A stretch of 64,000 bases of DNA, taken from sequence record MT446421.1; one strand, given 5' to 3'. This DNA is from Escherichia virus TH55. The translations under genes were made by a program, and so were the position numbers. Shown piece after piece: positions 10,321-54,506 of this stretch. Below the pieces are notes generated by a model. That model worked only from the letters and a program-made list of their open reading frames with translations, searched no databases and was not told the origin of the DNA. The first letter of the stretch is position 1, and each line of letters opens with the position of its first letter.

Positions 10321-10563
10321 TTAGATTACACTCCAAAAATTATGGAAGCGGATATCATCGATAGCCCAGTTAACAAACATGCGAGTTTGTTTGGGTGTTG
10401 GTTTACATGAGTACTTGTTATTGACCCGACGACCAGTTTCTCGACAGACTGCTTCGAGATACCATCGGCGGCCTTTATGAGGTCTTCCGTATGATAAGAA
10501 GACCTTGATTTCTTTGTTAACGATAATAGGAATTGTGGTTGTCAAGGTATACCTCTTCAACAA
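10321..10563 (-). CDS. hypothetical protein (80 aa)
   Basis: ORF followed by hairpin+U-run terminator; overlaps upstream gene by 47 nt, start uncertain. Confidence 0.4.
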   Translation of the reverse strand: MLKRYTLTTTIPIIVNKEIKVFLSYGRPHKGRRWYLEAVCRETGRRVNNKYSCKPTPKQTRMFVNWAIDDIRFHNFWSVI

Positions 10564-11527
10564 ACTTGTCCCAGAACTTCATGTCCACCTTCACAGGCAT
10601 ACCATTCTTAGCAGCCTGGATGGCCAGAACTTCAACTAAATCGACAGTATCTTCAAGAAGTTCTTGAACTTCTTTAAATGGTAATTCACCAGCTTTAATC
10701 AGCTTAATGATAGAGGCTTCACGCAATGGGAATACCAAGTCACCTGTTTGGTAGATTTCCATCAATTGATACCCTGCACGATATGCATGGCTCAGTGCTT
10801 TCCAGTCAATACCTTCATTAGCTTCAGCCTTACGAGCACGTTCACCATATTCGGCGTCGAGTTTATTCAGAGATTGCTTGAGCTCGATTAATGATAGAGT
10901 AGTTTGGTATTTACGACCGAGGACAGTATAGAACGTTTGAGGACCTGTTTTCTCATGGTTATGAAATACCCATTCGCAGAACTCGTTTTCAGGGAGCCTG
11001 TGTTTGATATCTTCTACCTTAGTACGTCGTTGCTTAGTGGAACCATCTTCTTGATAATCAACCCATTGTTCAGGAATCTGGTTAACAATTTCCAATACAC
11101 CACGCAGTGCAGCCAATCGAGAACCTTTAACACCATATTTGGAAGCTTGCTTACGGACGTACCCCAAATAGGCTTTCATGTTAGTTGTATAGAACCGCGA
11201 ACGGTTGTCTTGAATAAACTTCCATACATCTGGTAAATCGGATTTGACTACCAGGTCAGCCGGTGTGTGAATCATATCCAGAGCAACGGTTTCGCCTTCG
11301 GCTGCCAGTTTAAAGAAATATTTCAGGCTATAAAGTTCATGGTCAACATCATCTTTTGTATTTTTGGTAGCCGTGTTATTCGTGTTCAGGTTGGTATGGT
11401 TCATCGCGGTTCCGAGCAGGATATCTCGCGGATGAGGAACAAAGATTTCTTTAAAATCAACATCAGATTCCGGAGTGCTTGTTCCATAAAGATGGCTACC
11501 GAAGTAGCCTTTCATAACTGTTCTCAT
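10517..11527 (-). CDS. putative pol-beta-superfamily nucleotidyltransferase-like protein (336 aa)
   Basis: N-terminal hG[GS]-x10-DhDh signature (FGSHLYGTSTPESDVDFKEIF) typical of minimal nucleotidyltransferase fold; rest helical; family not identified. Confidence 0.5.
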   Translation of the reverse strand: MRTVMKGYFGSHLYGTSTPESDVDFKEIFVPHPRDILLGTAMNHTNLNTNNTATKNTKDDVDHELYSLKYFFKLAAEGETVALDMIHTPADLVVKSDLPDVWKFIQDNRSRFYTTNMKAYLGYVRKQASKYGVKGSRLAALRGVLEIVNQIPEQWVDYQEDGSTKQRRTKVEDIKHRLPENEFCEWVFHNHEKTGPQTFYTVLGRKYQTTLSLIELKQSLNKLDAEYGERARKAEANEGIDWKALSHAYRAGYQLMEIYQTGDLVFPLREASIIKLIKAGELPFKEVQELLEDTVDLVEVLAIQAAKNGMPVKVDMKFWDKFVEEVYLDNHNSYYR

Positions 11528-11986: not shown

Positions 11987-12547
11987 TTAAGAGTTCATAG
12001 TTGGGATAACAGAGTTCAGATAAGAGACTAAAACTTTTAGCTCGTCCTTAGTAAATACCACTTCATTAAAACCATCGTGTACTTGGGTAATACATAGTTG
12101 GTCACGACCGTCATGTTGAACAACAGTCAGTTCAGTATTATAATTTAATTCTTCTTCGTCGCCGTCAAAGGTTTCGCTGGAGCGAATCAGTGCATCTTGG
12201 CCTGGTACTTTCCATTCGACTTCTGGCTTACATTCTTCCTGGAACAGTTTGAAAATACAATCAAAGAATTTATCAGAATCGCTAATGCTCAGACATTTTT
12301 CATCTGTTTCAATATTAAACCCACCATCGTGCTTATAAATGCGAGCGCATACATCATCGTTAATATCAAATACACCACTAAAACTACCGCTAAGATAATC
12401 CTGTTTATCTAAAACCTTTAAAGCATAAAGTGGTTTAATATCTTGGATAGTCAGTACGATTTTATCGTCTTCTTGACAAAGCTCAATTGCATTATTAACT
12501 ACTTCAGCGGTCAGTTCGCCAAACAATTCAGTTGTTTCAATAATCAT
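11987..12547 (-). CDS. hypothetical acidic protein (186 aa)
   Basis: Minus-strand ORF; strongly acidic. Confidence 0.5.
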   Translation of the reverse strand: MIIETTELFGELTAEVVNNAIELCQEDDKIVLTIQDIKPLYALKVLDKQDYLSGSFSGVFDINDDVCARIYKHDGGFNIETDEKCLSISDSDKFFDCIFKLFQEECKPEVEWKVPGQDALIRSSETFDGDEEELNYNTELTVVQHDGRDQLCITQVHDGFNEVVFTKDELKVLVSYLNSVIPTMNS

Positions 12548-13308: not shown

Positions 13309-13545
13309 TCACCAGTATTTTTTGATAGTAGAAATTAATTCTTGGACTTGAGTGGTCTTCAGCTTACACCCACAACCTTTTAAGGTGTCTTTAAGGAGCC
13401 ATGGCTCTTTGAGCTCATCCTTTTCCAGGCGAATTCTATATCCGCGGTAATCAGCAAATATGCTTCCGTCATCAAATATCTTAATTTCAAGAATATGATT
13501 ATTGGTTTCATATTCCAATGAAACCATGGTATTTGTAAGTTTCAT
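13309..13545 (-). CDS. hypothetical protein (78 aa)
   Basis: Short ORF with stop/start overlap with neighbour. Confidence 0.4.
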   Translation of the reverse strand: MKLTNTMVSLEYETNNHILEIKIFDDGSIFADYRGYRIRLEKDELKEPWLLKDTLKGCGCKLKTTQVQELISTIKKYW

Positions 13546-13848: not shown

Positions 13849-14232
13849 TTACTCTAGTGTTAACAGATACTTAGTCTGAAAGAAAACTCCAACGATATCG
13901 TCCAGAGTCGATTGAATAGCCTTAGGTACAACTTTATAGACTCTTTCCGAGCTTTTAATCATTTCATCTAAAAACAAAATTGTATCTTTCGGCAAGTCCG
14001 AGGCGGACGGTAATGCAGCTTTGTATTGTTTCCCGCTGTAACCTAACCATTGCTCACTGAACTGGTCGAGTGGACCTTGGATTTCTGTGAAGTAGAAATC
14101 ATAAGCTTTATGGCGGGCGTAACTTTTGGTTTCAAGATGGGCGGATTTAAAATAAGCCAAAGAGACTAACAACCACCCAATATATGAATCCACCTCAGAC
14201 CCACGACCCGTTACGAAATCATCAAATTTCAT
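13849..14232 (-). CDS. hypothetical protein (127 aa; position of T4 rI.-1)
   Basis: ORF directly downstream of rI, followed by UUCG-hairpin terminator. Confidence 0.5.
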   Translation of the reverse strand: MKFDDFVTGRGSEVDSYIGWLLVSLAYFKSAHLETKSYARHKAYDFYFTEIQGPLDQFSEQWLGYSGKQYKAALPSASDLPKDTILFLDEMIKSSERVYKVVPKAIQSTLDDIVGVFFQTKYLLTLE

Positions 14233-14594: not shown

Positions 14595-14865
14595 ATCTTT
14601 TAAATTTGAAACAATACATTGCAAATAAATCAGAAAAATGTCTATCAACCCATATTCTTTGCACTGGACTAGTCACAGTCAGCATATAATGTGATTTTTG
14701 TAAATTTATTCCATTTTTATTCGGGCATTCTTTATTAACAGAATGGTACGTGCTTGCTACTATTTCAATTTCCCTTTCATATCTCTCGCTATCTGTTTGT
14801 GTGGGAATAAATGCAATTCCAGCAATAACAAAAATAGAGATATACGTCCAAACCTTGTATACCAT
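14590..14865 (-). CDS. hypothetical membrane-anchored protein (91 aa)
   Basis: N-terminal hydrophobic segment; between tk and rI. Confidence 0.45.
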   Translation of the reverse strand: MVYKVWTYISIFVIAGIAFIPTQTDSERYEREIEIVASTYHSVNKECPNKNGINLQKSHYMLTVTSPVQRIWVDRHFSDLFAMYCFKFKRL

Positions 14866-14872
14866 GCGAACC

Positions 14873-15445
14873 TCAGCTTGTTAATTCGAGCCAGTGTTTT
14901 CTGCATAAAGATACGTACGATTCATTCCCACCGACTAACACTTGCTCGCCGTCCTTTACAGCAGCACCGTCGATTACTCTCGCGGTCATGGTTGCTTTCC
15001 GGCCGCAATGACAGACGCCCTTTAATTCAACCAGTTTATCCGAAATAGCCAGAAGTCTGGCTGAACCGGGAAATAATTGACCCCGAAAATCTGTTCTTAA
15101 CCCGTAACACATAACGGGGATATTGTAATTATCAACCACTTGAGCTAACTGGTCAATTTGCTCTGGTAACAAAAATTGAGCTTCATCGACCAGGACACAA
15201 TGGATATCCTTTTGAGACTCGGCCCATTTATAGAATTCAAACAGGTTCATGTCGGCCGTTACCAGGTTTGCTTCCTGGCTAATACCAATACGTGATTTAA
15301 TTTCAGATTCCGAGTCCCGATTATCAATAACAGGTTTTAGCAAAAGCACACTCATTCCACGCTCTTTATAGGAATAAGCTGCAGTCAGCAATGAAGCTGT
15401 TTTGCCTGCATTCATTGCTGCGTAATGATAAATTAAACTCGCCAT
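14873..15445 (-). CDS. tk: thymidine kinase
   Basis: 190 aa; P-loop NAGKTASL, C-terminal zinc Cys pairs (CHCG...CRKHW); T4 order rI-tk. Confidence 0.92.
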   Translation of the reverse strand: MASLIYHYAAMNAGKTASLLTAAYSYKERGMSVLLLKPVIDNRDSESEIKSRIGISQEANLVTADMNLFEFYKWAESQKDIHCVLVDEAQFLLPEQIDQLAQVVDNYNIPVMCYGLRTDFRGQLFPGSARLLAISDKLVELKGVCHCGRKATMTARVIDGAAVKDGEQVLVGGNESYVSLCRKHWLELTS

Positions 15446-15454
15446 ATCACCTTC

Positions 15455-15640
15455 TTAAAGCGTATTCACATAAGCTATTAATTCGTTTTCTTTCGCATCA
15501 AATCGATTAGCAAATTCTTCTTGCTGTTCGGGAGATAGCGGGCCATATTCATCGTAAAAAGCGTTTGCTTCTGTATGCTCATCCAAAAGCTCATGGATAA
15601 GCTCAAACAATCTACTTTTCTGACTAATACTTAAACTCAT
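15455..15640 (-). CDS. hypothetical acidic protein (61 aa)
   Basis: Short ORF, stop/start overlap with next gene. Confidence 0.4.
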   Translation of the reverse strand: MSLSISQKSRLFELIHELLDEHTEANAFYDEYGPLSPEQQEEFANRFDAKENELIAYVNTL

Positions 15641-15843
15641 TTCGGTTCACCATATCGCACAAATTTAGGATGTTCGCAATAACCAGAATGAAAACCTTCA
15701 CCCTTATGATTAGAACATCCTTTATTAGAACAGTACCACCAGTAATCAAATTCACATTCCATTTCGTCGTTGCATAAAGCTGCGATTACTGGCCATTCGC
15801 ATTTTTCACATTTGGCCGTTTTAAGAATTCGGGCTTGACTCAT
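15637..15843 (-). CDS. Cys-rich small protein (68 aa), probable zinc binding
   Basis: Cys/His pattern CEKCEW...CNDEMEC...CSNKGCSNH...CEH. Confidence 0.45.
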   Translation of the reverse strand: MSQARILKTAKCEKCEWPVIAALCNDEMECEFDYWWYCSNKGCSNHKGEGFHSGYCEHPKFVRYGEPK

Positions 15844-16016
15844 AATTCAATTCCATCCATAACCAAAATTCTTTTTCGTTGGGTCTTGAGAGCTTCGTTA
15901 GCCCGGTCATAATCTTCTTGACTACCGCTAGGCTGTAAAGCCGCTACCTTTTTGGCCAAGTGAATAAGCTTATCCAAGTTTTCAACAATACGTTCTTGTT
16001 CTTCATTCAGGCTCAT
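15840..16016 (-). CDS. hypothetical small protein (58 aa, below ORF-track cutoff)
   Basis: Hand-translated MSLNEEQERIVENLDKLIH...; stop overlaps next start (TTATGA). Confidence 0.3.
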   Translation of the reverse strand: MSLNEEQERIVENLDKLIHLAKKVAALQPSGSQEDYDRANEALKTQRKRILVMDGIEL

Positions 16017-16467
16017 AATCCACCACTATTAAATCAATATCAGGAGTAAACATGTCGATTAATTTAGAAACCTTTTCCCAATCTCCACCTGCAATACCAC
16101 AACCAATGCGAGGAATGTAAATTACCGGTTTAAACAAAAGGGTTTCTGCTTGTAGATTTAATTCTATCATACAATTTACTAAAGCACCATAATCAAGATT
16201 AGGGCCCGGTTCATATTGAGTGTACAAATTATAACACATACCAAACCCAGTAGGTTTATGTTTAAAAACAATAGACATATCGCCTAATTTATCACGAGAA
16301 CCATATTCAGTGGTGGTTTTATCTATTTCTAAAACTTTTGGATAGGCCTTCGCCAACTGTCCAGCTACACCAGAACCCATTGTGTGGAAGCAGTTACAAC
16401 CATGAGCAATAATATTGCCTTGAAGAAAGAGGGCGACGATATCGCCCTTAATATACTGGGTAATCAT
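16003..16467 (-). CDS. macro-domain protein (ADP-ribose binding / hydrolase fold)
   Basis: 154 aa; N-terminal GDIV...AHGCNC...MGSGVAGQL and C-terminal IPRIGCGIAGGDW match macro-domain motifs. Confidence 0.6.
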   Translation of the reverse strand: MITQYIKGDIVALFLQGNIIAHGCNCFHTMGSGVAGQLAKAYPKVLEIDKTTTEYGSRDKLGDMSIVFKHKPTGFGMCYNLYTQYEPGPNLDYGALVNCMIELNLQAETLLFKPVIYIPRIGCGIAGGDWEKVSKLIDMFTPDIDLIVVDYEPE

Positions 16468-16823
16468 TTAGAGTTCAATCCTCTATTATATGAATCCACT
16501 AACCTGTCAACCATACTGGTGCAGGCCGCCTTATATTTTGCACTTGAAAGAATGCAATCCATTTCAAATAATTTCTTTTCATATTTGTTGGATAATACAT
16601 TCTTTTTCAAAAGTGTATGTTCAACATCATTTTGGCCATCTTTATATGCCGCGGTGAGCTTGGCGCTGAACTGGATTACACAATCCACATTGCTTGGTGC
16701 GCAATAATCTTTAGCCGTCCTCGTTGCATATTCTATGATGCTGTTGTTGTCATCGCTCTGTACTGAAGCTATTCCTCCCATGCTGAATACTAACCCTATG
16801 GCTAAAGTGATAACTCTTACCAT
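16464..16823 (-). CDS. secreted/periplasmic protein (119 aa)
   Basis: N-terminal signal-peptide-like segment (MVRVITLAIGLVFSMGGIASVQS); four Cys. Confidence 0.5.
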   Translation of the reverse strand: MVRVITLAIGLVFSMGGIASVQSDDNNSIIEYATRTAKDYCAPSNVDCVIQFSAKLTAAYKDGQNDVEHTLLKKNVLSNKYEKKLFEMDCILSSAKYKAACTSMVDRLVDSYNRGLNSK

Positions 16824-16825
16824 TT

Positions 16826-17368
16826 TTAATCCACCGTTTTTAATAGGCCTCGTGATTTTAAGTAGTTAGCTTTTTCTAGGACCTGTGAAGCATACGTATT
16901 ACCAGCTTTCACATTCCATCCTGCGTTATATGATGATAGTGTTTTCCTTATATCCCCCTTATGAATATTCAACCAGTATGAAAGCTCAATGTAAGCCCAG
17001 CGTGCACTGTTCTCTCTCTTGCTTATCATTTTGATTATTTCTTTATCTGTCATTGTCCACCCAACCTGTTTCACGCGTTCGCGCACGGTTGGAAGATAAT
17101 TTTGGAATATACCATATGCATGATGCTTATCTTTATTTAATCCAGTATTAATCCCAGCAGAACTCTCCTGCCAGGTTAAACCAGCCATGATATATCCCAA
17201 ACCATTATGTTGGTGCGGATTTTCTTTGTACTTACCATTTTTCTGGAACTGTTCTCCAAACGCATAAGCATATTGGAGGTTTTCCATTTGTTCATTACTG
17301 AAAGTAGGCTCTACGCTATGGGCAGACATACTAACTGTCAATAGTAAGGTGGCGATTACTTTTTTCAT
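16826..17368 (-). CDS. periplasmic lytic transglycosylase-like protein (SLT family)
   Basis: Signal peptide (MKKVIATLLLTVSMSAHS); SLT motifs WQESSAG...AYGIFQ...SYNAGW. Confidence 0.6.
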   Translation of the reverse strand: MKKVIATLLLTVSMSAHSVEPTFSNEQMENLQYAYAFGEQFQKNGKYKENPHQHNGLGYIMAGLTWQESSAGINTGLNKDKHHAYGIFQNYLPTVRERVKQVGWTMTDKEIIKMISKRENSARWAYIELSYWLNIHKGDIRKTLSSYNAGWNVKAGNTYASQVLEKANYLKSRGLLKTVD

Positions 17369-17378
17369 GAATTCCCCA

Positions 17379-17837
17379 TTAGATATAAATCACTTTTGTG
17401 CTAATTTTTCCTTCCAGACGATTAGAGTTAACAAACGCCATACGACAACACATGGTCGGAGACTTCCCAGGAATAGCGGGGTTAACTGTCATTCCTAACC
17501 ATAGGTTCTTGTCCGTGATTTCCAGACGAAGTGGACGGTAGTTCACATTCGGGTCAATTTGTGCTTCAACTTCCGGGAGTGGTTTCATCTCCAAGAATTC
17601 AACGATTTCTTTTACATGTGGTGTGATTTTTCCAAACAAGTCAAAAACATATTGTTCATCAATTTCACGCTGGATTGCACGGTCCAACAGGTGTGGACTG
17701 TACTTAATGAAGAATGCCTCAAGGCCTGCTTCTTTACAAGCCTTGTTGATAGCATTATTAATTTTGAGGAACTCCGTTTCAAAAATGCGACGAAGTTTAT
17801 TGCGGCGAATGTAAACACTTGAATCGATAGTAGTCAT
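17379..17837 (-). CDS. regB: endoribonuclease RegB (cleaves GGAG in early mRNAs)
   Basis: From M20 (MTTIDSS), about 152 aa; close match to remembered T4 RegB (VYIRRNKLRR...LLDRAIQREIDE...RPLRLEITDKNLWLG); promoter lies inside the longer ORF-track frame. Confidence 0.88.
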   Translation of the reverse strand: MTTIDSSVYIRRNKLRRIFETEFLKINNAINKACKEAGLEAFFIKYSPHLLDRAIQREIDEQYVFDLFGKITPHVKEIVEFLEMKPLPEVEAQIDPNVNYRPLRLEITDKNLWLGMTVNPAIPGKSPTMCCRMAFVNSNRLEGKISTKVIYI

Positions 17838-17864
17838 GATTATCTCCTTTTGTTTGATGGGATA

Positions 17865-17893
17865 ATCATAACTCATTTCAATCTGCTTGTACA
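17865..17893 (-). promoter_or_regulatory. T4-type early promoter (regB)
   Basis: Minus strand: -35 TGTACA, 17 nt, -10 TATGAT; 28 nt upstream of regB ATG. Confidence 0.55.
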
Positions 17894-18473
<580 letters not shown>

Positions 18474-18477
<4 letters not shown>

Positions 18478-18692
18478 TTCACTTCCTCATCAGATGCAAT
18501 ATCATATTCTACAAAACGAAGGCCATCATATCCACCCCGAACAGAGATATACGTAGTCGGGTAAACAATTTCTTTACCATTCCATTGGCCACCGTCCCAA
18601 CATTCCATAAAGCCTTGTTCGCCCTGTTCGTGGAACCAGTCAACAAACATCTTCAGAGCTTCTTCAGAACCTTCAATAGTCAATTTAGACAT
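18474..18692 (-). CDS. hypothetical protein (72 aa)
   Basis: Minus-strand ORF, ATGA coupling. Confidence 0.45.
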
Positions 18693-18981
18693 ATTTTTTC
18701 CAGTCAGAAATCATGTGAATCTCCTGGTCATATGCCAGGAGACTGCGAGTAATAATACCCTTACAAGGTCCAGAAATAAATTCCAGAGTAAAGTAAGGAA
18801 CCTGTTTCATTAATCGGATACTTGGAGCATGACATCTAAAACGAGAGCCCTTAAAGGGCCCTGACATGAATACATATTCTAATGGATAGAAATAAGCATA
18901 TTCAAAATTAACGGTAAGGTCCTCTCTTCGGACCTTACGTGAGAAATAGCAAAACTCAAAAAGTTCTTCATCAGTCATCAT
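18685..18981 (-). CDS. hypothetical protein (98 aa)
   Basis: Minus-strand ORF. Confidence 0.45.
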   Translation of the reverse strand: MMTDEELFEFCYFSRKVRREDLTVNFEYAYFYPLEYVFMSGPFKGSRFRCHAPSIRLMKQVPYFTLEFISGPCKGIITRSLLAYDQEIHMISDWKKYV

Positions 18982-19505
18982 TGCATTCCTATCACAAAGA
19001 ACAACGGCAAAGGCTTATCACCTTGACACATAAATTTATTCATCATTACCTGATAAGCTTCATAGAACTTATCCATTGCAGGGAGGCGAATAGGTTCTTC
19101 AATAATGATTAAAAGACGCGTAAAACGCAATCCACGGTACTTATGGAAATTATCTTCATCAAGGAAACTGCGTACAGTATCATAGACAACGAATCCAGGT
19201 CGTTCAACTTGAAGATGTGGTTGTGCCTTAGAAACCCGCTTTATTATATTACAGATTTCTCGTGAGCGATGCGAAGAACTCGACATAACAATCACATCAT
19301 TACCTTTAGAAACCCAATCCGCAGCAAACTGCGCAATAGCACTTGTTTTACCTGTTTGTCTTCCACCATCAAGTCTAAGAGTACCAAACTCTTGCATTCT
19401 TGAAGCGGGTTCATACCAGGTGTATTGGTCTGAATCTAAACGTTCAATGGCGCGTTCAGCGAAGGCGTGCATTAAGGTTAGATAAATGGGAGTTAAAAAT
19501 TTCAT
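18978..19505 (-). CDS. small P-loop NTPase-like protein (175 aa)
   Basis: Walker A GGRQTGKTS and Walker-B-like LLIIIEEP; possible early promoter at 19541-19570. Confidence 0.5.
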   Translation of the reverse strand: MKFLTPIYLTLMHAFAERAIERLDSDQYTWYEPASRMQEFGTLRLDGGRQTGKTSAIAQFAADWVSKGNDVIVMSSSSHRSREICNIIKRVSKAQPHLQVERPGFVVYDTVRSFLDEDNFHKYRGLRFTRLLIIIEEPIRLPAMDKFYEAYQVMMNKFMCQGDKPLPLFFVIGMQ

Positions 19506-19540
19506 AGTTGTCTCTTAATTGTGGGGCCATTCCTTGGCAC

Positions 19541-19570
19541 ATTAATTCGTCCATGTATCCGTATGTAAAC
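19541..19570 (-). promoter_or_regulatory. possible T4-type early promoter
   Basis: Minus strand: -35 GTTTACA, 17 nt, -10 ATTAAT (weak); in 161-bp ORF-free gap upstream of 18978-19505. Confidence 0.4.
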
Positions 19571-19666
19571 CCTTTACCGCACTTGGGCTCGACCTTATTA
19601 CAGGTAGGGAAAGGTCCATCACTCAGAGGACGCGACGTTCATGAGGAGAGGGCCGGCTTGCCTTTA

Positions 19667-47976: not shown

Positions 47977-48846
47977 ATGATTAATCAAACCCCAAAATTA
48001 TTAGTAGACATCGGCGAGATTGGTAACGCTAGCACCGGTGATATTCTATATGAAGGCGGTCGTAAACTGAACGTGGATTTAGACAGTTTGTATAATACAT
48101 TTGGCGACCAACGTCTGTACTCTGTGAACAATGGAGAAAACACCCAGGTCCTTCATGCGACTGGGTACTATCAAAAAGCTACAAATATCATCGAATGGAA
48201 CTCAACTGTTGCTCTCGGTTCTATGCGTGATGTCAATACTGCCGAAGGTGTTATCACCGCAAGAATTGCAAAAGGTAAAGCAGGCGAAGGTGTTATCTTT
48301 ATTAACTCCAATGGTTCATTATCTACCTCGATGCCTCTGGAAGTTGAACTACAAGGCACGGATTCATTCCTGACCGCTGCAACGAACAAAATGAAATTTA
48401 CTCAGCCTTATACAAAAATTACATTGTGGTGTATTGACGATGCTAACGGCGTAGGGACCTGGGACTACAAAATTGAAAGTATGTTTGGTAACCAATCTGT
48501 ATTGCTCGACAAAACATACAATATGAGCTCGGTTGTTCGTGATATTCCAATCGCTTACCGCGCAGATTATAAAACTATCAAATTGATGCTTACGGCTATT
48601 TCAACAGACGAAACTAAATACAAAGCATCAGAAATGTTACTTTACATCGACCTTAAGGACCGCAAGGTATATAGCACAGAATACGCTGTAATCAGACGTG
48701 GACAAGCTAACGACGATGATGAGATATATGCTATCGATTTTAGAATTGATAACCAGGACATCATACAGGCGGCTATAAGCTCACCCACTGCCATGAAGCT
48801 CGCTATTAAAGTAATTTCCGCCCAAACAATCGGAGTACCGGTATAA
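47977..48846 (+). CDS. 9: baseplate wedge / long-tail-fibre socket protein gp9
   Basis: 289 aa; late promoter 47942-47949 upstream. Confidence 0.85.
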   Translation: MINQTPKLLVDIGEIGNASTGDILYEGGRKLNVDLDSLYNTFGDQRLYSVNNGENTQVLHATGYYQKATNIIEWNSTVALGSMRDVNTAEGVITARIAKGKAGEGVIFINSNGSLSTSMPLEVELQGTDSFLTAATNKMKFTQPYTKITLWCIDDANGVGTWDYKIESMFGNQSVLLDKTYNMSSVVRDIPIAYRADYKTIKLMLTAISTDETKYKASEMLLYIDLKDRKVYSTEYAVIRRGQANDDDEIYAIDFRIDNQDIIQAAISSPTAMKLAIKVISAQTIGVPV

Positions 48847-50657
48847 TGAAACAGAATTTAAAAATTGGCAATATGGTTGATGATGGTACTGGTGATTACC
48901 TTCGTCTCGGCGGTCAAAAAATAAATAATAACTTTGATGACCTTTATTATCAGCTAGGGGACGGTGAAAATCCCCATGCAGCTGGTGCATGGAAAACTTG
49001 GACTACGCAAGAAGGTACCGAGTTGTCCGCTGTTATGGGCCGAAGCTATACCATCGATACATCAGCGGGTGCCGTTCGAGTCGTCCTTCCGAAAGGAACA
49101 ACTCAAGAATACAATTATGTAATTCGCTTGCGTGATGTGTTTGCTACCTGGCAAATCAACCCGGTGACAATTGTTCCTGCAGTCGGGGATACGATTAAAG
49201 GCTCACCGAATCCAGTAGAAATTAAACGCAACTTAGCTGACCTTGAACTTGTATATTGTTCACCAGGTCGTTGGGAATATATCGATAATAAACAAGTCGA
49301 TAAAATTTCAAATAACGACGTTGCCACAGTTGCATCCCAACAGTTTATTGCCACCGAAGGACAAACTGACTTTATCAATGTGTTTGGTGCTATTCCATAT
49401 AGCGTATCGAACTTAGAAGTCAAACATCGTGGTAACGACCTGTTTTATGGTAAAGATGATATTTTTGACCCGGTGAATGCTGAATTTGGTTCCCCTGGTG
49501 CAAACCCTGGTGAAATCGTTGCGCTTGATGGTAAAAGCATCCGTCTGAAAATGCCATGTGCTGAAGGTGATACTGTTATCATCCGAACATTTAATGATGG
49601 TATTGCTCAATGGCGTAGTTCGTATAATCGTCGTGATATACTTGTTCGTAGTCAAGACAGGACCAAAGAAACAACAATTAATGGTTCTTTGATTGTTACA
49701 GATTTGACAACCAAACACACCTTTACAATTGAAGAACTTGGTATTTCTCCTGGTAGCCCAATTAACCCAAACGCATGTCAGGTATTCATTAACAGTATTT
49801 TGCAACATCAAGCTGGTACTGCGGGAACTCCAGTATTTTATTGTGAAGGTGCACAAGGTTCTACTGCTGCAGAATGTAGTGCAAATGGTGGTAGCTGGTC
49901 TGAATCAAACCAGGATTATTTGCTGCAATTTGATGATGATAACCGTATCGAAGGCATTAGCATTTACCGTGAATTTGAAGACGGTGATATTCTGTCAGTC
50001 ATTTGGTACAATAACGATATCGGCACAACTATGACCATGGATGAAATCCGTGATGAGACTGATACTCTTTATGTTTCTCAGGGAAATACGTTGAGCCTAA
50101 CCGGTCGTGTGCGTATTACAGATTTTGATAATCCGTTTGCACCAAACGTTGAACCAGTCGGTCTTCAGGAAGTTGTTCCATCTTCTGTTGGCGTTATCTT
50201 TGAATTATTCTATCCGGTCGGTACAATTTACGAAAATACGGTTAACCCAAATAACCCGGTTACTTATATGGGATTTGGTTCATGGAAACGTTTGAAAGAA
50301 CGTGTAATTGTTGCCTGGTCAGACGACCCTGCCTCAAACTTCCATACAAACAATAATGACCTGGATTCTGGTGGTAACCCACAAGCGACAGCAGGTGGTA
50401 CAGGTGGTAGCGTTGAAGTTCATATTAAAGATATAAACGTACCTAAACTTGAAACTGATGAGAAGGTTTTAGTTGTTGATGATAATGGCCCGATTGTTGT
50501 CGGTGGTTGTCAGGTAGACCCAGATGCACAAGGTCCAGCCTATACCAAATACAGAGAAGACAAAGCCACCATTAATCAGGCGCAAGACCCTCAAGCTCAA
50601 CCGGTTTATACAATGCCTCCATATTTGATTGCTCATCGCTGGGTAAGGATTGCTTAA
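48846..50657 (+). CDS. 10: baseplate wedge / short-tail-fibre attachment protein gp10
   Basis: 603 aa (T4 gp10 about 602); ATGA coupling. Confidence 0.85.
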   Translation: MKQNLKIGNMVDDGTGDYLRLGGQKINNNFDDLYYQLGDGENPHAAGAWKTWTTQEGTELSAVMGRSYTIDTSAGAVRVVLPKGTTQEYNYVIRLRDVFATWQINPVTIVPAVGDTIKGSPNPVEIKRNLADLELVYCSPGRWEYIDNKQVDKISNNDVATVASQQFIATEGQTDFINVFGAIPYSVSNLEVKHRGNDLFYGKDDIFDPVNAEFGSPGANPGEIVALDGKSIRLKMPCAEGDTVIIRTFNDGIAQWRSSYNRRDILVRSQDRTKETTINGSLIVTDLTTKHTFTIEELGISPGSPINPNACQVFINSILQHQAGTAGTPVFYCEGAQGSTAAECSANGGSWSESNQDYLLQFDDDNRIEGISIYREFEDGDILSVIWYNNDIGTTMTMDEIRDETDTLYVSQGNTLSLTGRVRITDFDNPFAPNVEPVGLQEVVPSSVGVIFELFYPVGTIYENTVNPNNPVTYMGFGSWKRLKERVIVAWSDDPASNFHTNNNDLDSGGNPQATAGGTGGSVEVHIKDINVPKLETDEKVLVVDDNGPIVVGGCQVDPDAQGPAYTKYREDKATINQAQDPQAQPVYTMPPYLIAHRWVRIA

Positions 50658-51322: not shown

Positions 51323-52872
51323 TGACAACGACTAACACGCTAAAACACATTAGCGATAAATCCGAATATAAAACATTCGACCCGACGGGAACAGCTTTCC
51401 CGTCGACTGTTACCAACGTGCAAGAGGCTTTAGGGTCTCTTAATAAAATTGCGTTAGATGGATATATCCCAGCCTCATCCGAAACGACCGCAGGACTCAT
51501 CAGGCTAGCCACCACACAAGAAGTTATTGATGGTATTAGTCCAGACTCTGCAGTTACTCCAGCGACCTTAAAAGCTCGTTTAGACATTCCTACGCAAGCT
51601 ACAGAAACTTATGTAGGTATTACCCGTTATGCAACCAATGCCGAAGCAATTGCCGGGACAGTAACCGATGCAGCTATTGTTCCATCTTCATTAAAAGCAA
51701 CAATTGATGATGTTTTTACTGTTCGTGTTGGTACTGAAAATAACCTGGGTGTTCTTCGTATTAGTACCGAGGATGCAGCTTTAGCTGGCACAGATGACAC
51801 AACCGCTATGTCTCCGTTGAAAGTTGCTCTGGCAATTGGCAAAGCAACAGCGGCGCTTCCAACTTATTCAACTGCCACACAAACTGTTTCTGGTTTAGTA
51901 CGAATTGCTACAAATGCTGAAGTGCAAGCAGGAACCCTGGGTGACGGTGTAGCAATTTCTCCAGCAGGTTTAAATGCTCGTACAGCAACACAAGACCGCG
52001 CTGGGATTATTCGTCTTGGTAATCAGTCAGAGATTAATAACAGTGCTGATGGTGTTGCGGTAACTGGCGCAACTCTTAATGGTCGTGGAGCCACAACCGA
52101 TAATCGCGGCGTCGTTAGATTAACTACTCAGGCTGGGGTTGCTCCTGGTGGTGATGGTGCCGGTGCACTGGCTTGGAATGCTGATGTAATCAACACTCGC
52201 GGTGGTCAACGAATTAATGGAAGTCTTTCTTTAGATTATATTTCCACCGGCAATTTTGATTCCAATACAGCTCATATGGGCGGTCAATTACTTTCTACAC
52301 AGCGTTATGCTTCTGAACGGGTTCCAGTTGGAACGGTGATGATGTTCGCAGGTGATAGTGCTCCTCCTGGCTGGATTATGTGTCACGGCGGCACCGTTAA
52401 TGGTGACCAATTCCCTGACTATCGAAATACTGTTGGAACTCGTTTCGGTGGCGATTGGACCAACGTCGGTATTCCTGATATGCGTGGTTTGTTTGTTCGT
52501 GGTGCTGGTACCGGTGGACATATTCTGAATAACCGCGGTCAAGATGGTTATGGCAAAGACCGTTTGGGTGTTGGTTGTGATGGTTCATGGGTCGGTGGTG
52601 TACAAGCTCAGCAAATGTCATATCATAAACACGCGGGTGGTTGGGGTGAATACCAACGTAACGAAGCTCCATTTGGTGCATCAGTTTATCAAGGTTATCT
52701 GGGTACAAGAAAATATGCAGACTGGGATAACGCTTCATATTTTACTAACGATGGATTTGAACTCGGTGGCGGCAGAGATGCTTTAGGTACGTTAAACCGT
52801 GAAGGTCTTATTGGTTATGAAACTCGCCCATGGAATATGTCTTTAAACTATATTATCAAAATTCATTACTAA
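51322..52872 (+). CDS. 12: short tail fibre protein gp12
   Basis: 516 aa; repetitive beta-rich N-terminus, His-rich C-terminal head domain (HKHAGGWGEYQ). Confidence 0.85.
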   Translation: MTTTNTLKHISDKSEYKTFDPTGTAFPSTVTNVQEALGSLNKIALDGYIPASSETTAGLIRLATTQEVIDGISPDSAVTPATLKARLDIPTQATETYVGITRYATNAEAIAGTVTDAAIVPSSLKATIDDVFTVRVGTENNLGVLRISTEDAALAGTDDTTAMSPLKVALAIGKATAALPTYSTATQTVSGLVRIATNAEVQAGTLGDGVAISPAGLNARTATQDRAGIIRLGNQSEINNSADGVAVTGATLNGRGATTDNRGVVRLTTQAGVAPGGDGAGALAWNADVINTRGGQRINGSLSLDYISTGNFDSNTAHMGGQLLSTQRYASERVPVGTVMMFAGDSAPPGWIMCHGGTVNGDQFPDYRNTVGTRFGGDWTNVGIPDMRGLFVRGAGTGGHILNNRGQDGYGKDRLGVGCDGSWVGGVQAQQMSYHKHAGGWGEYQRNEAPFGASVYQGYLGTRKYADWDNASYFTNDGFELGGGRDALGTLNREGLIGYETRPWNMSLNYIIKIHY

Positions 52873-52880
52873 GGACCAAA

Positions 52881-54506
52881 ATGATTAATAAACTCAGTCT
52901 CAAAGAACTGCCGTATAGCATCGGTATTCCAGACGAAGGTCAACAGAGAATTCGTTGGATACAAAACGGCGATTGTATGACTGCGGCCAGTACCAAATAT
53001 GGTCATGATGGTAATTTGAACGCCGCTGCAGTTGGCGTTCAAACAAACGTAGATACACTCGACGACAACTCAAATGCATCTAAAGAAAAAATAAACGAAA
53101 TTATTGATAACGTCAATAATATTCAGGAAGCTTTGAATATAACAACTAACACGGAAGTTGTTAAACAAATTGAAAAAAACCGTACGGATATTCTTGACCT
53201 TGATGAACGTCAATTTAATACCGAATTGTTATCAAGCGAAACATCTGAAGACCTTAAAAAGTTAAAAGAAGATGTTGGTGTTTATGACCCGTTAACCGAT
53301 TCATATTATCGCACAGTTCGTAATGACCTCGTATGGATTAAAAATGAATTAGGCCAGTATGTTGACCAAGATATAAATGGTCTCCAGGTTATCGGCAATC
53401 CGTCAAAAGGCATGAAACGCCGCATCATCGATAACAGTTCGGCTATTGTTGCTCATGGAGTTCGTATTAAGACTCTTGAAGATAACTATCATGATTCTGA
53501 TGTTGGTTCTCTTAACGTAAAAGTAATTAAAATTCGTGAAGAATTAGGTGAGTCTACTTTAGCAACAGGTAAACCGGCTGTATTTGTTCGACTGAATACT
53601 CTTGATGGTAAAGCAGTTGAAATTGACGAAGATATTGCCAACATTCAAGAAGCTATTGGTTTTGGTACCGGACTTGCAATTACAACTCGCGTTGAAAATC
53701 TTGGTGGACGTGTTTCGGTCAATGAAACAGATATTGTGGATATCAAACCAAGACTTGCTAAGGTTGAAGCTGATATCGGCACCGCTCTGGAACCGTTAAC
53801 AATTAATGGTCGAATCAGTGCTTTGCGTTCGGATGTTAATGGCTTACAGGTTGTTGTTGGCCAGGATTCAAGCTCTGGTTTACGCGGAACCACTGCATGG
53901 CTTTCTCAGAGAATCGGTACAGAGCAATCTCCGGAGCCAAACACTATCACGTATAAGTTGAATGCGACCACTACACTGGCTAACGAAACTGCATCAGGCC
54001 TTCAGGATGTACAGGCCGAAATCGGTACAAATAACACTGGTATGAAAGGCTCTATTTTGACTTTAACTAGCCAGATGAATGGTACAAACCCTAACGGTGC
54101 TACCGTGGCTGAACGTGGTGTTCTTCCGGTTGTAATTAACTTGGATATGCTGATGGCGTCCAAGCTGAACGACGCACCATTGGACAATAAGTTATATGGT
54201 CGCAAGCAAGGAAACTGGACTGAAATTATCGATACCAGAACCGAGATTGATGCAATTAAACTCGATACTGCAAAAATTGCACCATTAACCACTCGCGTGA
54301 CAACCCTTGAAGGTACAGTAACTCCGCTCCCTGGTCGCCTGGATGCGGCCGAGGCGAAGATAACTACTTTAGAAGGTAAAGTATCAGCCTTAGAAACAGA
54401 GCTCGCCAAAAGGCCTCCTGTCGCTCCTGCAGCTGATGGTCTCCCTTATGTGCTCGTTGATAATGCATGGGTTCTTTTGTCTACATTCGTGACTGTTGGA
54501 CCATAA
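52881..54506 (+). CDS. wac: fibritin (whisker antigen control)
   Basis: Start at ATG 52881 (SD AAGGA) gives 541 aa; N-terminus LPYSIGIPDEGQQRIRWIQNG and C-terminal foldon-like DGLPYVLVDNAWVLLSTF resemble T4 fibritin. Confidence 0.85.
   Translation: MINKLSLKELPYSIGIPDEGQQRIRWIQNGDCMTAASTKYGHDGNLNAAAVGVQTNVDTLDDNSNASKEKINEIIDNVNNIQEALNITTNTEVVKQIEKNRTDILDLDERQFNTELLSSETSEDLKKLKEDVGVYDPLTDSYYRTVRNDLVWIKNELGQYVDQDINGLQVIGNPSKGMKRRIIDNSSAIVAHGVRIKTLEDNYHDSDVGSLNVKVIKIREELGESTLATGKPAVFVRLNTLDGKAVEIDEDIANIQEAIGFGTGLAITTRVENLGGRVSVNETDIVDIKPRLAKVEADIGTALEPLTINGRISALRSDVNGLQVVVGQDSSSGLRGTTAWLSQRIGTEQSPEPNTITYKLNATTTLANETASGLQDVQAEIGTNNTGMKGSILTLTSQMNGTNPNGATVAERGVLPVVINLDMLMASKLNDAPLDNKLYGRKQGNWTEIIDTRTEIDAIKLDTAKIAPLTTRVTTLEGTVTPLPGRLDAAEAKITTLEGKVSALETELAKRPPVAPAADGLPYVLVDNAWVLLSTFVTVGP

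Follow-up and report, generated by a model that had tools for sequence, protein, structure and literature searches.

The toxin of the DarTG2 defense system ADP-ribosylates thymidines in DNA, and several macrodomain proteins are known to act on this modification. TARG1 takes thymidine-linked ADP-ribose (ADPr) off DNA, and gp104 of phage PhiKZ, named AdfM, has been biochemically proven to remove the thymidine-linked ADPr made by DarT2, keeping the lysine of the FPTK motif (Cell Rep 2026, PMC13309987). A different chemistry is found in SCO6735 of Streptomyces coelicolor, which carries Gln85 at the lysine position, is without the TARG1 dyad, and is 54% identical to BT1257; it outpaces DarG and TARG1 in clearing DarT-made thymidine-ADPr from single-stranded DNA and also rescues Escherichia coli from DarT (PMC9411070). 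Here, we describe a macrodomain gene of Escherichia virus TH55 (MT446421.1), located at 16003..16467 on the minus strand of the 64,000-nucleotide stretch that was analyzed as a whole (hereafter, the window). We compare it with these systems and with tk.4 of phage T4, to which it corresponds by sequence and gene order.

The function of tk.4 has recently come to light through genetics. In the HIDEN-SEQ preprint of November 2025 (10.1101/2025.11.20.689424), tk.4 is the single significant hit of a T4 transposon library on a DarTG2 host, the fitness loss of tk.4 insertions is specific to the presence of DarTG2, and a clean tk.4 deletion makes T4 sensitive to DarTG2, for which reason the gene was renamed adfM (anti-DarT factor Macrodomain). 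Removal of ADP-ribose from DNA is proposed there for Tk.4, from its structural similarity to Mycobacterium tuberculosis DarG. A further factor was also to be predicted independently of this screen, since T4 and T2 lacking adfA and adfN stay resistant to DarTG2. The Tk.4 protein has been detected in T2-infected cells (2026 preprint). The same work reports chimeras of the host small RNA ArcZ with T2 tk.4 mRNA, found by RNA interaction by ligation and sequencing (RIL-seq; T2 locus L002:2501-2968), and mislabels tk.4 as a “putative thymidine kinase”.

A preliminary description of the TH55 sequence had placed a 154-aa macrodomain protein in an open reading frame (ORF) at 16003-16467, within a tk-regB block, and both statements hold. 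The ORF runs on the minus strand from an ATG at 16467 to a TGA at 16003, its translation includes the strings KGDIVALF, IAHGCNCFHTMGSGVAGQL and IPRIGCGIAGGDW, and RegB, thymidine kinase, and the rI antiholin are confirmed among its neighbors. The 2-kb stretch around it is 100% identical to Escherichia phage UPEC07 (MW250787; Straboviridae, Tevenvirinae, Gaprivervirus), and the protein is 100% identical to UPEC07 QUL77641.1, which is already annotated as “macro domain-containing protein”. Across the window and the other 106 kb of UPEC07, the gene is single-copy.

The T4 and T2 Tk.4 proteins are 57% identical to the TH55 protein over 153 of 154 residues without gaps (E 2e-69), and T2 and T4 share with TH55 the order regB, vs.1, vs, macrodomain gene, three small ORFs, tk. 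On this combination of identity and gene order, we assign the gene as the syntenic ortholog of T4 tk.4 (adfM), an identity that the preliminary description had missed. The two proteins are collinear over their full length (154 aa here, 155 aa in T4), occupy the same slot between vs and the small tk.x ORFs, and have in common the invariant residues H22, N25, and Q84, the glycine loops, and an eight-residue “PGPN” mobile loop (FQPGPNFE in T4); the two mRNAs also have a 5' hairpin in common. They differ in 43% of residues, in the second glycine loop (GIAGGDW here, the family consensus, vs GIGKGNW in T4), and in isoelectric point (pI; 4.97 vs 5.91), and the anti-DarTG2 phenotype is known for T4 alone.

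The macrodomain fold itself is confirmed by four independent tests. The Pfam Macro profile (PF01661) matches with 33.2 bits against a gathering cut-off of 22 (E 5.6e-8, profile positions 2-117 of 118), and PHROG 335 matches with E 1.7e-70. An AlphaFold2 model built from 49 homologs (mean predicted local distance difference test score, pLDDT, 95; predicted template modeling score, pTM, 0.90) has the alpha/beta/alpha fold with a central mixed sheet, so that the macro fold suggested earlier from the letters alone is borne out, as is the retention on alignment of the two glycine-rich loops, MGSGVAG (residues 30-36) and GCGIAGG (122-128). The top Foldseek match of the model is human TARG1/OARD1 (PDB 4j5r, E 1.4e-10), and its nearest structural neighbors are TARG1, DarG, SCO6735/BT1257, and yeast Poa1p, not the MacroD or PARG types. 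The model thus places the protein in the TARG1/ALC1-like macrodomain class.

Of 50,697 phage records, 2753 contain a homolog (about 5% of the phage genomes on deposit), and homologs reach non-T4-like phages of Pseudomonas, Vibrio, and Acinetobacter. A bacterial homolog with 40% identity (P0095) lies on the chromosome of Pelagimonas phthalicica (locus L008, 6001-6459), where its neighbors are housekeeping genes and none belongs to DarT, NARP1, or a prophage. Like SCO6735, the homolog is a cellular orphan, a macrodomain with glutamine at the lysine position (Gln-type), and its context is uninformative on function.

The best PADLOC and NCBIfam matches of the protein are DarG models, yet by sequence, Tk.4-type proteins are not DarG-type. 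The NCBIfam DarG model NF048014 is matched over positions 3-148 of 338 only, with 30.7 bits against a cut-off of 250, and identity to M. tuberculosis DarG is 27% (E 3e-9). DarG (PDB 5m3i, 5m31) and PhiKZ gp104 differ from the TH55 protein in having the FPTK catalytic lysine and lacking the histidine described below, and PhiKZ gp104 gave no significant BLASTP similarity to it. DarG further extends into a C-terminal domain that binds DarT, and its gene has darT as a neighbor; here, there is no darT next to the macrodomain gene, whose neighbors are vs and a 58-aa ORF. Membership in the DarG family was therefore rejected, for want of the catalytic lysine (Q84 stands on K80), the C-terminal domain, and an adjacent darT. 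In a distance-based neighbor-joining tree, DarG and PhiKZ gp104 form a clade of their own with 100% bootstrap, and the Tk.4 orthologs, other orphans, the phage Adpp proteins discussed below, and BT1257 form a Gln-type group with 89%. By these comparisons, the name AdfM covers two different macrodomain subfamilies, a Gln-type one for T4 Tk.4 and a DarG-type one for PhiKZ gp104, with no significant BLASTP similarity between the two lineages.

Residues were compared by taking the DarG, TARG1, BT1257, and SCO6735 sequences from PDB alignments and aligning them both to the family profile (hmmalign) and by MAFFT; conservation was counted in the alignment of 49 homologs, and column composition in a separate set of 60 sequences. 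Four stretches of the gene, all read from the minus strand, carry the putative active site. The HGCNC codons (H22-G23-C24-N25-C26, 16390..16404) would adjoin the distal-ribose site: H22, G23, N25, and C26 never vary and C24 reaches at least 90% conservation, with H22 aligning with SCO6735 H24 and Poa1p H23 and N25 with SCO6735 N27; where the family has its invariant histidine, DarG has Asn. Glycine-rich loop 1 (M30-G36, MGSGVAG, 16360..16380) has invariant G33 and A35 and at least 90% conservation of M30 and G31. In the codons for N80-L81-Y82-T83-Q84 (16216..16230), Q84 of the string NLYTQY falls, in both alignments, on DarG K80 (FPTKK), TARG1 K84 (LITKK), and SCO6735 Q85. It is invariant in the 49 family members, and its column in the larger set holds Q in 56 of 60 sequences, with K only in TARG1, two DarGs, and PhiKZ AdfM. 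The diphosphate-binding glycine-rich loop 2 (P119-W130, PRIGCGIAGGDW, 16078..16113) keeps P119, G122, G124, and W130 invariant and G127 and G128 at least 90% conserved; G122 and G124 align with SCO6735 G126 and G128, and A126 stands at the position of TARG1 D125 and Poa1p F152.

The likeness to TARG1 (4j5r) is one of fold and size, and of the thymidine-linked substrate that TARG1 also takes off DNA; the TARG1 dyad K84/D125 is replaced by Q84/A126, and S35 by N25. SCO6735 (PDB 5e3b) and BT1257 (PDB 2fg1/2afc) match the TH55 protein in the core of the active site. They have Gln at the catalytic-lysine position together with equivalents of His24, Asn27, Gly126, and Gly128, and they stand alone, with no toxin gene adjoining. 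The whole set H22, G23, N25, Q84, G122, and G124 corresponds to SCO6735 H24, V25, N27, Q85, G126, and G128, and all six are family-invariant. In SCO6735, the Q85A, Q85E, and N27S proteins are dead or nearly so, N27S being almost inactive, and mutagenesis with molecular dynamics led to a proposed mechanism in which a water is held by the Val25 backbone, while Gln85, locked by Asn27, positions the distal ribose (PMC9411070).

We therefore consider it fairly likely that the TH55 protein is a Tk.4/AdfM ortholog that protects phage DNA from thymidine ADP-ribosylation by DarT2 through an SCO6735-like, lysine-independent hydrolysis. Its chemistry, judged from the aligned residues, is probably that of SCO6735 and not that of DarG. 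DarT2 attaches ADP-ribose to the N3 of thymidine at TNTC motifs in single-stranded phage DNA, blocking replication, and in such a scheme, the phage macrodomain enzyme would strip the adduct from the DNA and free ADP-ribose. Q84, locked by N25, would position the distal ribose with no catalytic lysine, and a water at the H22-G23 backbone would initiate cleavage of the C1''-N bond. Because SCO6735 works without a lysine, the missing lysine can be reconciled with the anti-DarTG2 phenotype of T4. The preliminary description had proposed that the protein could reverse ADP-ribosylation by host defenses, and this finds support in the transposon screen and clean deletion of the T4 ortholog; for the TH55 protein, we infer a target shared with T4 Tk.4 despite 57% identity, a catalytic action on DNA, and the residue roles given above.

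A number of observations weigh against this account. The DNA-contact lysines of SCO6735 are not kept: K34 corresponds to S32 in loop 1, K89 to G88, and K93 to nothing. The mobile loop (Y85-D92, YEPGPNLD, 16192..16215, minus strand) has eight residues, like those of DarG and TARG1, and holds no Lys or Arg, with no lysine counterpart of K89 or K93; that of BT1257 has 14 residues, six more than here. The extended loop that marks the SCO6735 subclass, about five residues longer than in DarG and TARG1 and bearing Lys89 and Lys93, is thus absent, and overall identity to SCO6735 and BT1257 is only 26-31%, with those proteins being cellular and this one phage-encoded. The protein is also acidic (pI 4.97). 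PhiKZ AdfM, which does act on DNA, is equally acidic, and net charge and pI were for this reason dropped as a proxy for DNA binding. Identity to T4 Tk.4 is only 57%, loop 2 differs, and in the neighbor-joining tree, the node joining the TH55 protein and T4 in one T4-like cluster has a bootstrap of only 49%. The residue roles were assigned by alignment and not from model coordinates. As for T4 itself, the source is an unreviewed preprint whose evidence on tk.4 is genetic, with no complementation or catalytic mutant in its accessible part, and we found no biochemistry for any Tk.4-type protein. Finally, the nearest biochemically characterized phage relatives are ADPR-1''-phosphate phosphatases (ADPR, ADP-ribose), not DNA hydrolases.

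These relatives are the Adpp macrodomains of phage NARP1 operons (e.g., Vibrio phage Gary gp137, KNV71_gp137), described in a January 2026 preprint as Poa1p-like ADPR-1''-phosphate phosphatases that let NARP1 rebuild nicotinamide adenine dinucleotide (NAD+) after cleavage by the RES-domain defense aRES (10.64898/2026.01.28.702374). An alternative is, then, that the TH55 protein is mainly an ADPR-1''-phosphate phosphatase acting on a soluble metabolite, with an anti-DarT2 role that is secondary or absent here; the metabolite might come from RES-domain NADases such as aRES or from side reactions of RNA repair. We compared it with the Adpp sequences in Table S1 of that study. They are its closest characterized phage relatives (33-38% identity, pairwise E 7e-21 to 2e-25); identity is 38% for Gary Adpp (E 7e-24), 36% for LCK69, and 34% for TAC1, and the H, N, and Q positions are common to all. 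Adpps and Tk.4 have in common the motifs H..N.C, KLG, N.Y[GT]Q, and IGxGxxGGxW, in keeping with their place in the single group with 89% bootstrap, and Adpp is likewise a small stand-alone phage protein. Gary Adpp turns ADPR-1''-phosphate (ADPR-1P) into ADPR in vitro (10.64898/2026.01.28.702374). H22, moreover, aligns with Poa1p H23, a residue mutated by the PDB depositors; our information on the Poa1p catalytic residues comes from PDB entry titles (H23A, S30A, and F152A mutants) and a printed alignment. A “phosphatase” label is attached to the family in PHROG 335 and in the T4 record, where Tk.4 reads “phosphatase; contains A1pp phosphatase motif”.

The genomic setting speaks the other way. 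Adpp is useful through feeding NARP1, and dephosphorylation of ADPR-1P alone restores no NAD+. Adpp genes lie within two genes of Adps and Namat, the operon of Acinetobacter phage TAC1 serving as the positive example of this canonical arrangement, whereas tblastn with the TAC1 Adps and Namat against the window and the remaining 106 kb of UPEC07 returned no homolog in the 170-kb genome (best E 0.9-3), and the neighbors here are vs and small ORFs. Membership in the NARP1-AP pathway was rejected on the absence of Adps and Namat from the genome. The mobile loops of the NARP1 Adpps have 12-15 residues against eight here, what Adpp has been shown to act on is a soluble metabolite, and the only known phenotype of the T4 ortholog is against DarTG2. 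We consider a mainly phosphatase role unlikely, though it is the strongest of the competing explanations.

The two substrates need not exclude each other. In both, C1'' of the distal ribose bears the leaving group, so that hydrolysis of a DNA adduct and of ADPR-1''-phosphate are compatible readings of the same active site. Tk.4-type macrodomains might, on a tentative view that we would not put far above the phosphatase role, be dual-purpose C1''-hydrolases acting on thymidine-linked ADPr (made by DarT2) and on ADPR-1''-phosphate (made by RES/aRES) with one lysine-free His/Asn/Gln site. If so, one 17-kDa early protein would blunt two unrelated NAD+-based defenses, and NARP1 Adpps would conversely protect against DarT2. 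The “PGPN” loop, free of basic residues, would then be a T4-lineage adaptation marking the clade, and T4 Tk.4 and PhiKZ gp104 would be independent recruitments from different subfamilies with different chemistry.

Protection might also come from binding of the DarT toxin rather than from catalysis. Inhibition of DarT in vitro survives in the catalytically dead SCO6735 Q85A, DarG K80A, and TARG1 K84A proteins and is strongest with SCO6735 (PMC9411070), and the lack of SCO6735's basic DNA-contact residues in the TH55 protein would fit such a role. It lacks, however, anything equivalent to the DarT-binding domain at the C terminus of DarG, and H22, N25, Q84, and the glycine loops are invariant across distant homologs from phages of different hosts. 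Because this catalytic core is kept across hosts, an enzyme fits better than a binder of one toxin, and we regard toxin binding as quite improbable.

Another possibility, raised in the preliminary description, is that the protein reverses or tunes the phage's own ADP-ribosylation by Alt, ModA, and ModB. Macrodomains are in general ADP-ribose erasers, and the genome does contain these transferase genes, outside the window (UPEC07 51765-53825, alt; 162887-164106, modB and modA). Alt and Mod are arginine-specific, however, and the enzymes that remove arginine-linked ADPr are of the ARH/DraG type, not macrodomains of the TARG1 class; to our knowledge, cleavage of the arginine linkage by this class has not been described. 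The macrodomain gene is unlinked to alt or mod, and its homologs occur in non-T4-like Pseudomonas, Vibrio, and Acinetobacter phages (whose genomes were not searched for Alt/Mod genes). With the fitness loss of T4 tk.4 insertions being specific to DarTG2, the proposed regulation of the phage's own transferases is left without support, and we judge it very improbable. Degradation of some other C1''-substituted ADPr derivative, such as a cyclic-ADPR-type immune signal or O-acetyl-ADP-ribose, seems just as remote, even with macrodomains cleaving many 1''- and 2''-linked derivatives, phage ones being predicted to target immune signals, and some sources labeling homologs “O-acetyl-ADP-ribose deacetylase”.

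Protection by Tk.4 may not extend to other ADP-ribosylating defenses. T4 requires the NADAR protein AdfN against DarTG1, and CmdTAC defends robustly against T-even phages, according to the abstract of the CmdTAC paper, which touches on phage macrodomains only in its references. The need for AdfN and the effectiveness of CmdTAC suggest that Tk.4 would be inactive on guanine-ADPr DNA and on ADP-ribosylated mRNA. The UPEC07 record holds, at 48606-49064, a homolog of gp30.3, and in T4, gene 30.3 is the adfN that encodes the NADAR factor against DarTG1. Both DarT counter-defenses are thus probably present in the phage.

The macrodomain gene belongs to a densely packed region. At its 5' end, the stop codon of vs (TGA) and the start codon of the macrodomain gene (ATG) overlap in an ATGA at 16464..16467, and its 3' end overlaps the start of the next small ORF by 14 nt (16003..16016), both on the minus strand; with overlaps at both ends, the gene forms part of a compact array of co-directional genes. 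The ATGA overlap suggests translational coupling within this array. The upstream neighbor, at 16464..16823 (minus strand), is an ortholog of vs, the valyl-tRNA synthetase modifier, by the annotation of UPEC07, T2, and T4, and a Pfam search with its protein returned no match. Further along the same strand are the regB endoribonuclease (PF10715, E 3.2e-72; longest ORF 17379..17894, with the start at 17876 in the UPEC07 annotation) and, on the other side, the tk thymidine kinase (14873..15445, PF00265, E 5.7e-58). A scan of 14800-19600 found 13 sigma-70-like sites against 13.9 expected from shuffled sequence; such sites being no commoner than in the shuffles, the scan says nothing on transcription starts.

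A GC-rich hairpin followed by a U-rich tract, resembling a terminator, was found by a terminator scan 17 nt inside the macrodomain coding sequence (16430..16448, minus strand). It reads AGGGCGAU-AUC-GUCGCCCU, then CUCUUUCUUC, with a folding energy (dG) of -17.3 kcal/mol and a z of -2.4, and a conserved TATAAT..GAGGATTGA lies upstream of it at 16475-16490. T4, T2, a Dhakavirus, and a Krischvirus keep the nucleotide sequence of the hairpin, with one U.G to U-A change, and the hairpin is absent from the orthologs of the four other genera compared (Karamvirus, Jiaodavirus, Tulanevirus, and Acinetobacter phage). The Karamvirus phage encodes the same KGDIV peptide from AT-rich codons without the hairpin. 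The annotators of Makalu_003 marked the element as a “terminator”, and its role, lying between vs and tk.4, might be that of an attenuator or of an element for mRNA stability.

Several other ORFs in this part of the window, all those with strand given here being on the minus strand, deserve a brief comment. The 58-aa ORF directly downstream of the macrodomain gene (15840-16016, minus) has a sub-threshold SLATT_4 match (E 0.0023, 18.1 bits vs a cut-off of 27), probably by chance, and the next two ORFs have matches to Phage_zn_bind (PF23895) and DUF7438. A 186-aa ORF at 11987-12547 (minus) is annotated in UPEC07 as a second “thymidine kinase”. We reject this as a mis-annotation, as Pfam gives PF24449 (E 3e-42) and PF24448 (E 9e-18), and on these matches, we assign the product as a y05I/MobD.1-like putative transcription factor. 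Other UPEC07 names nearby also look misassigned, for example “endoribonuclease” on a DUF5856 protein (13849-14232) and “valyl-tRNA synthetase modifier” on a small ORF (13309-13545). At the position of T4 nrdC.11, a 336-aa ORF (10517-11527, minus) has an RlaP domain (PF10127, E 1.6e-12), that of the RNA repair pathway DNA polymerase beta family nucleotidyltransferases.

The gene, its family, and the phenotype of the T4 ortholog were already known. What our alignments add is the subfamily assignment: Tk.4-type proteins are without the DarG/TARG1 lysine and have an active-site core common to SCO6735 and the Adpps. This would explain how DarT2 can be countered by a “DarG-like” protein that does not have the catalytic residue of DarG. 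It is also a caution that neither the DarG mechanism nor the “phosphatase” label can be transferred by homology alone.

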